Shown here piece by piece: positions 32,904 through 40,044 of a stretch of DNA of 64,000 bases. Numbering within the stretch: the stretch's first letter is position 1; each line of letters begins with the position of its first letter. Origin of the DNA: Isurus oxyrinchus (taxonomy: Eukaryota); assembly GCA_026770705.1 (NCBI GenBank), contig JANJGN010000038.1, forward strand, positions 11,160,001 to 11,224,000, written 5' to 3'. The notes below the pieces were generated by a model. It was given only the letters and a program-made list of their open reading frames with translations, had not been told where the DNA came from and did not search any database. Made by a program: the position numbers and the translations under genes.

Positions 32904-32949
32904 ATGGGATTTGCGCTGTGCCTTTGCTTCTTACTGGCTTACTTCACCT
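32904..32949 (+). CDS. IGHV: Ig heavy-chain leader exon (MGFALCLCFLLAYFT)
   Basis: ATG, hydrophobic signal peptide, phase-1 donor T|gtgagt that splices in frame to the V exon. Confidence 0.92.
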
Positions 32950-33076: not shown

Positions 33077-33378
33077 ATGTCCAATCCGCCATCGTGCTGA
33101 CCCAGCCGGCTTCAGAGACCGCTAAGCCCGGACAATCTCGCAAACTGTCCTGTTCGGTGAGCGGGTTCAGTCTGGACAGCTACTATGTGCACTGGGTTAA
33201 ACAAGTTCCTGGGAAAGGGTTGGAGTGGCTCCTTGCTTTCTACAAACCCTCGTCAACCACGTATTATGCGAATGGGGTCGAAGGTCGAATCATCCCATCA
33301 AGAACTTCGTCCACAACTTACATTGAGATCAAAAATCTGAGACCCGAAGACACCGTGAGGTATTACTGTGCAAAAGAC
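33077..33378 (+). CDS. IGHV: Ig heavy-chain V segment (IgW-like framework), open frame
   Basis: Acceptor taacag; reads YVQS-AIVLTQPASETAKPGQSRKLSC...WVKQVPGKGLEWLL...DTVRYYCAKD with canonical Cys, Trp and YYC; followed by a 23-RSS. Confidence 0.97.
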
Positions 33379-33417
33379 CACAGCGACCTGAACAAGCCCA
33401 GAGCTCGTACAGAAACC
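33379..33417 (+). other. V 3' recombination signal sequence (23-RSS)
   Basis: CACAGCG-23 nt-ACAGAAACC. Confidence 0.95.
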
Positions 33418-33768
33418 GCAGAGGAATAATTGCAGCGAATCATAGGTCAGTATTAGCTCAAAATAGGTTGAGAGTTGTGTTTGAACCTCGATTGAAAAGT
33501 TATGTTTTCCAAAGCAATAAAGTGGCGAAGAATAAAAACAAAATGTTGACTAACTCTTTATATTGAAGAGCATAGTTACCGCTTGGAATGTGCACAACTG
33601 ATGACTAGGAGTCAAATGGAAATATTGACAAATTATTATGTGAATAGGGATAATTTTAGCCCAAGGTTCTGCTCCTGATTAAAACTCTTGGATGAATTGT
33701 AATCAAAATCTGCAAATCTGCTGATTGAAAGGTTTTATTTCTTATAGCAACAATCAGTGAGTGAGAGC

Positions 33769-33846
33769 AGTATTTGTGCTGGCTTGTGTCACTGTGGTAC
33801 TATGGGGGTACTGGATGGCACAGTCGTTACTGTTAATGCAAAAACC
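33769..33846 (+). other. IGHD: D segment (coding 33797-33818) flanked by two 12-RSS
   Basis: AGTATTTGT-12-CACTGTG | gtactatgggggtactggatgg | CACAGTC-12-GCAAAAACC; all three forward frames are open (VLWGYWM / YYGGTGW / TMGVLD). Confidence 0.93.
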
Positions 33847-34168
33847 TCATCGGGGCTAATTGTTTGCATTTCGGTCAACGCATGTGTCTTACTTTAAAAC
33901 AACATTAAACAAAGCCCTATCTGTGCCTGGAATTCCCCAGTTGACAGGTTTCAAAAGGTGCTAAAGTTTTAATTATTAAATCATTGGTTGTTGATTTCAA
34001 TGCATGATCATCAGTTACTCTGCGAAATACAAATAAAACAGTGTAATTTAAAGTCTTTAAAAAAATTCACAATTTTACTTTTTTGATAAAGTCGATCATG
34101 ATTTTACTTTGCCTCTCGTTTCGTAACATTTAAATTAATATGGAATTTCTCCCCTTGTGTGCAGATCT

Positions 34169-34207
34169 AGTTATTGTGTGACCCAGACCAGCGAATGTAA
34201 CACTGTG
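34169..34207 (-). other. J 5' recombination signal sequence (23-RSS)
   Basis: AGTTATTGT-23 nt-CACTGTG. Confidence 0.93.
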
Positions 34208-34255
34208 ACTATATGGAATATTGGGGCCAAGGAACCATGGTGACGGTGACTGCAG
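34208..34255 (+). CDS. IGHJ: Ig heavy-chain J segment (YMEYWGQGTMVTVTA)
   Basis: WGxG motif and phase-1 donor G|gtaag. Confidence 0.97.
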
Positions 34256-39744: not shown

Positions 39745-40044
39745 CGACACCGTCTCCCCCCAACCTCTACGCTCTGCTCTCCTCCTGTGAACAAGCAAAC
39801 ACTGCCGGCTCCATCACCTACGGCTGTTTGGCTGCGGACTACTCCCCCGAAATCACCAGCGTTTCCTGGAAGAAAGGTCAAGAGACGATCACAGCTGGAT
39901 TGAAGACCTACCCATCAGTGCTGAACAAGAAGGGAACCCACACCCTGAGCAGCCAGTTAACCATCACCGAATCAGAGGTGGGAAGCAGCACAATCTACTG
40001 CGAGGTTCGACGGAGTGACTCGGTCTGGCTGAAGGAAATGCCAG
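39745..40044 (+). CDS. IGHM: IgM constant exon Cmu1
   Basis: [17 protein letters not shown]...[19 protein letters not shown]...[12 protein letters not shown]...IYCEVRR...KEMP, typical shark Cmu1; acceptor acag, donor G|gttcgt. Confidence 0.95.

Follow-up and report, generated by a model that had tools for sequence, protein, structure and literature searches.

A lone 22-nt D segment in a heavy-chain cluster of Isurus oxyrinchus, likely formed by germline joining of D1 and D2

The 64,000-nt stretch of Isurus oxyrinchus DNA analyzed here (the window) contains an immunoglobulin heavy-chain cluster with a lone D segment of 22 nt between V and J, and the locus raises the question of where such a segment came from. 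A first-pass annotation, made from the letters of the window, proposed that D1 and D2 had been joined in the germline, leaving the 5' signal of the former and the 3' signal of the latter. Comparison with the sister clusters of the same genome, public sequencing runs and the literature indicates that the segment very probably consists of D1 and D2 joined end to end, likely by RAG-type recombination in the germline, and that it was then copied to four loci.

The cluster begins with a leader exon (32904..32949, forward strand), which has an ATG, 46 nt, a GT donor and a frame matching that of V, followed by an open VH exon of 302 nt (33077..33378, forward) which was assigned by translation and sequence comparison to an IgW-like V family. 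Recombination signal sequences (RSS) were located by a scan of the whole window in which the heptamer begins with CAC and at most three mismatches in all were allowed. Just four RSS-like matches were found from V to J: the 23-spacer RSS of V (33379..33417, forward), which is the same in most unjoined sisters, a reverse 12-spacer RSS (33769..33796), a forward 12-spacer RSS (33819..33846) and the 23-spacer RSS of J (34169..34207, reverse), which has a consensus heptamer. The D segment (33797..33818, forward) lies between the two 12-spacer signals. This bears out the first-pass description of a lone D with 12/12 signals and spacers of ~350 and ~320 bp, which measure 351 and 322 bp. The JH segment (34208..34255, forward) is open, carries the WGQG motif and a GT donor, and is left by RNA-type contigs at 34255 into Cmu1-like letters. 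The constant exons are all on the forward strand. Cmu1 (39745..40044, ends counted by hand) is open, as are Cmu2 (40985..41296), Cmu3 (44866..45171) and transmembrane exon 1 (51559..51686), which were read by translation. Cmu4 with the secretory tail (45661..46051) is frameshifted as assembled, a C run near 45767 being one base short; the three other joined copies described below (L002, L003 and L004) have this base and read through, and the frameshift of the window copy is either real or due to faulty assembly.

One V, a D region, one J and their own constant exons in one unit correspond to the elasmobranch IgM minicluster layout. Shark IgM is laid out as four C domains, a secretory tail with a penultimate Cys and a transmembrane exon, and the same elements occur in the window; from this exon layout and from the likeness of the C exons, we take the isotype to be IgM. 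The VH segment matches a named IgW chain at 60% vs. 49-52% for four canonical IgM VH of the same genome, and a PDB sequence search confirmed an Ig V domain and nothing more. As a separate observation, the V of the window, whose family comprises at least 46 clusters, matches IgW-type chains at 60-62%, yet it stands on IgM constant exons.

The genome itself supplies the comparison needed to read the D segment. A DNA search with the V-J stretch of the window gave 138 candidates, 40 of which were scored. Among these, full-length V-J matches were the window, L002, L003 and L004; the remaining 36 V-side matches end at D and 35 matches restart ~390 bp further on. The sisters align with query bases 1-743 and 750-1211, and the ~390 bp of extra DNA in between was found, in the loci fetched, to consist of the 22-spacer RSS of D1, the D1-D2 spacer and the 5' 12-RSS of D2. 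Pattern searches of the genome detected 46 D1-upstream and 46 D2-downstream signals, with no match for the controls. All 46 clusters of the V family were inspected: D1 (12/22) and D2 (12/12) are kept separate in 42 and are joined, with an identical 22 nt, in four. In the unjoined clusters the outer signals are 399-410 bp apart in 41 and 1052 bp apart in one. As the first-pass annotation had anticipated, the 5' flank of the 22-nt D matches the DNA upstream of D1 in the sisters, the reverse RSS aligning with their D1 upstream RSS, and the 3' flank matches the DNA downstream of D2, the forward RSS being identical to that of L005, L006 and others, while its halves each find a counterpart among the separate D1 and D2 alleles of the sisters. 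Among the 46 clusters, no 22-nt D was seen that is unfused and carries an unrelated flank.

Several family members depart from this pattern in other ways. The cluster with the long interval is L025 (G000:C101), where D1 and D2 are separated by 1052 bp instead of ~406. Eight members (L019, L020, L022, L023, L028-L030 and L045) have a one-base V deletion in common and form a pseudogene clade that has been amplified to eight separate small contigs. In L087 (G000:C20:77084816-77086980), which has a V of the same family, D1 and its signals were lost by a break in the spacers, giving V-D2-J, and D2 keeps its own 5' RSS.

The junction can be placed between 33807 and 33810. The first 11 nt of the fused D correspond to the 13-nt D1 allele of L040-L042 and the last 10 nt to the 11-nt D2 allele of L005/L006, and together sister D1 and D2 alleles account for 21 of the 22 bases. 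Enumeration of all family alleles gave five equally good parses, each leaving one unexplained base, which would be either an untemplated G or a substitution; relative to 13 plus 11 nt, the net loss is 2 nt and the untemplated bases number 0-1. A 13-nt D1 allele ending in GGGGGT is present in four loci of the other VH family, and with such an end the junction would need no untemplated base. Four of the five best parses put both junction ends 0-2 nt from the heptamers. P bases are possible and none is required, so that the junction bears no mark specific to RAG beyond the precise removal of the signals.

Details of the first-pass reading of the segment need revision. Its division into 11 plus 11 nt stands among the five equally good parses and is not the unique one. 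As to the GTACT with which it has both halves start, all 42 unjoined family copies of D2 start with A and none with G; in the second GTACT, one or two bases therefore probably derive from D1, or one is untemplated. Neither the Cmu4 frameshift of this copy, as assembled, nor the recurrence of D-D joins in the genome was noted at first pass. The three forward frames are all open, as it stated. Open frames as a sign of design were considered and rejected, since 13 of 14 unjoined family D alleles are also open in all three.

What removed the DNA between D1 and D2 can be judged from what is missing. Compared with the sisters, the fused cluster precisely lacks the facing inner signals and the intervening DNA. 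In the sisters the 3' RSS of D1 has a spacer of 22 and the 5' RSS of D2 a spacer of 12, a pair whose joining fits the 12/23 rule; 22 is the usual spacer length of the shark D1 RSS. The fused D fits a V(D)J-type coding joint made with little TdT, the part of RAG being deduced from the junction sequence. The signal joint of an excised D1-D2 circle gave no match in the genome at up to one mismatch, a result that carries no weight either way. An ordinary germline deletion between D1 and D2, without RAG and occurring by chance or through short homology, is considered improbable. Such deletions do exist in this genome, as in L087 (spacer break) and in L096, where D1 and D2 are joined through five shared bases, and an overlap of one base (T) is possible at the junction of the fused D. 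However, homology between the similar starts of D1 and D2 would yield an 11-13-nt hybrid like that of L096, not a segment of 22 nt that contains nearly all of both. For a random deletion within the ~1220 bp from V to J, the chance of having its ends in D1 and in D2 is ~2e-4, and that of having them no more than 3 nt from both the D1 and D2 signals is ~2e-5.

The germline origin of the RAG-type joint was addressed through the ancestry of the four joined copies. In a tree of all 46 clusters, built from the flanks without D, they make up one side of a branch supported at 100/100. A second tree, in which 22 of these 46 clusters were combined with 21 loci from the other VH family, has the joined copies among unjoined clusters; its midpoint separates the two VH families, and its inner order and the order of branching among the sister clades are weakly supported. 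These trees place the joined form as derived from the split form. The exact parent is absent from the assembly, the best-fit D1 and D2 alleles being in different sister clusters. Flank identity among the joined copies is 96.2-99.6%, vs. 91-96% when they are compared with six unjoined sisters. The copies are spread over three contigs, of which one measures 94.9 Mb, and show clade-wide flank changes as well as private mutations. Because somatic junctions are unique to a clone and one junction is common to four diverged copies, the join is very probably inherited rather than somatic, in agreement with the germline origin claimed at first pass. The assembly may contain a single locus twice over as L001 and L002, which are 1.67 Mb apart and 99.3% identical over 13.6 kb.

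Still more improbable is that the reference picked up an artifact of assembly or, from lymphocyte DNA, a somatic V-DD-J intermediate. V-DD-J does occur as a somatic intermediate in spleen and thymus of the nurse shark (PMC2435157), and the tissue sequenced for the reference is unspecified; but the same junction recurs in four loci on three contigs with the changes just described, and the same D was recovered in a contig of public run X13. Least credible of all is that the single D represents the ancestral state or a tandem doubling, with two-D clusters derived from it, since the halves of the 22-nt D are indeed alike at both ends but separate D1 and D2 are the commonest state in both VH families (42/46 and 38/55), the joined clade is nested among unjoined clusters and the two flanks stem from different segments.

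The X13 contig (94 nt, depth 37.9) covers 33744-33837, spans the whole D and carries two RSS-spacer differences from all four copies of the assembly; it has 64 letters to the left and 30 to the right of the junction, one below the bridging rule. A spanning contig was absent in three of the four public DNA-type runs (61-85% of each run read; tissue unspecified). The DNA-type runs contain just 0.26-0.28 of the words of the window, so that they are probably not near-identical to the joined clade. Another X13 contig end, a loose end before 33810, places the 5' signal of a D1, with ten bases from a different D1 allele, immediately ahead of a D2 end, and this one contig suggests a further independent D1-D2 join in that sample. 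Contigs of four runs guessed to be RNA show joining of this V family to J; none of the four V-to-J junctions with printed letters was assignable to the fused D, the CDR2 covered by these contigs belonging to another subfamily and the D region being without cover. A single contig of run X3 (depth 5) skips from 33443 to 34163, breaking off shortly beyond the V RSS and resuming shortly ahead of the J RSS; the ends of the gap are GT..AG, and the contig resembles a spliced sterile germline transcript.

The following course of events is proposed. RAG would have paired the 3' 22-spacer RSS of D1 with the 5' 12-spacer RSS of D2 in an ancestor's germ cell or early embryo, ~380 bp between the two segments would have been excised, and the joining of the coding ends would have cost a net 2 nt and left 0-1 untemplated base. 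The joined cluster would afterwards have been duplicated into the four loci of the assembly. Its remaining signals are equal or near-equal to those of the unjoined sisters, and as they are 12/23 compatible (V23 / 12-D-12 / 23J) an intact copy would remain capable of rearrangement and would form two junctions in place of three. L002 is open in leader-V, J, Cmu1, Cmu2, Cmu4 and TM, its Cmu3 is identical to the open Cmu3 of the window, and judged by sequence it looks like an intact joined copy. L003 and L004 have V frameshifts, and L004 also has stops in Cmu1 and Cmu2. Given two or three broken copies out of four and no sign of selection, the joined cluster is most likely an accident that has been tolerated, and less likely a selected design or specialized receptor. 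The identity of the 22 nt across copies was weighed as a sign of selection and rejected: the summed branch length among the four is ~0.05, at which zero change is expected by chance about one time in three, and the unchanged bases are therefore not evidence of selection.

Other joined clusters occur in this genome, among them RAG-type products that count in favor of the proposed origin of the fused D, some with bases fitting P nucleotides (L053, L054 and L065). A JH pattern gave 108 matches; the 100 listed comprise 45 of this V family and 55 other loci, which were fetched. Among these 55, 38 are unjoined and four have a single D with the 5' signal of D1 and the 3' signal of D2. As assembled, four are V-DDJ (L059, L063, L067 and L080), two V-D-DJ (L097 and L101), one VDD-J (L083) and two full VDDJ in frame (L088 and L089). 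Two have an inverted D2-J interval, one has lost D1 by a spacer break and one is a J without a V within 2 kb. The single-D clusters belong to the canonical VH family (G000:C26), with D segments of 28 nt (L053), 25 nt (L054), 11 nt (L096) and 20 nt (L105); L053 and L054 each have one untrimmed end with bases fitting P nucleotides. The eight D-D loci show five different junctions and require four changes on the tree, at least three of which are forced by well-supported branches.

The two clusters with an inverted D2-J interval are L065 (G000:C26:36123173-36125340) and L078 (G000:C152:301593-303760). The inverted interval of L065 is 99% identical, in reverse, to L075. In both loci D2 is followed by two bases fitting P nucleotides and then by the 23-RSS of J, and the 12-RSS of D2 precedes J. 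From its sequence, this arrangement is read as a double hybrid joint with swapped signals that would still be 12/23 compatible (V23-12D22-12D23-12J). The two D2-J double hybrid joints are possibly of more interest than the fused D. A D1-D2 inversion of hybrid-joint type is known in the horned shark (PMC2193153).

Germline joins of heavy chains were described as hard to dissect because their junctions are too variable (Lee et al., 2000; PMC2193156). In the present case, close unjoined sisters allow a heavy-chain joint to be read to within one base, the direction of the join is set on a tree, and later copying and decay can be traced. The finding supports ongoing RAG-type activity with little TdT in the shark germline, and the fusion shows how a new D segment can arise. 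A broader proposal, which we hold to be doubtful, is that the joining of D1 to D2 in the germline recurs in sharks as a route to new, long 12/12 D segments and to the V23-12D12-23J layout of bony-vertebrate heavy chains, with L002 kept as a CDR3-restricted early-life IgM, a counterpart of IgNAR type III. If it were true, the best data set on the rules of germline RAG activity would be this genome, where at least three, probably five, separate D-D joins and examples of V-D-DJ, V-DDJ, VDD-J, VDDJ and hybrid-joint inversions stand beside close unjoined sisters.

Germline-joined clusters have long been known, and the fusion in the window is a further, unusually well-resolved example without a new mechanism. 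The second VH family of the horned shark may have one D. Nurse shark IgNAR type III carries a germline D1-D2 fusion, still rearranges with one junction fewer, and is lineage-specific, the spiny dogfish not being joined (PMC4622739). As in the window, two D segments are fused in the germline; IgNAR, however, goes from three Ds to two units, whereas in the IgM cluster of the window two Ds have become one 12/12 D. In IgM of the horned shark, and in that of the little skate, V-D1-D2-J-Cmu miniclusters are likewise partly joined in the germline beside unjoined sisters. Reviews of germline-joined IgM clusters list VD-J, VD-DJ and VDJ, but a germline V-DD-J, with a free V and joined D1-D2, is not plainly listed in the parts available (PMC5192425, PMC4279169). 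For horned shark and skate IgH, "V DD-J" is printed in PMC2193153, a rendering that fits either VDD-J or V-DD-J, and the phrase "VD and VDD joined" genes in PMC2193156 favors the VDD-J reading. Among the papers searched, the exact string V-DD-J occurred only in PMC2435157, for somatic products, and PMC2192082 and PMC12227049 yielded nothing relevant.

The somatic V-DD-J of the nurse shark has a configuration identical to that of the window, and D1-to-D2 joining can come first there; a normal shark IgM cluster rearranges with six trimmed flanks and three N sites. These somatic joints, however, are unique to a clone, carry N/P additions and are absent from erythrocyte DNA, whereas the join in the window is fixed and duplicated (PMC2435157). 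In nurse shark light chains, germline joints are trimmed, contain P bases and point to little activity of TdT. The NS4 light-chain genes resemble the fused D in having been joined from the split form, in their case several times, with clean loss of the RSS, small trimming and little TdT, and differ in that they are complete VJ exons while the heavy-chain join described here is partial (PMC2193156).
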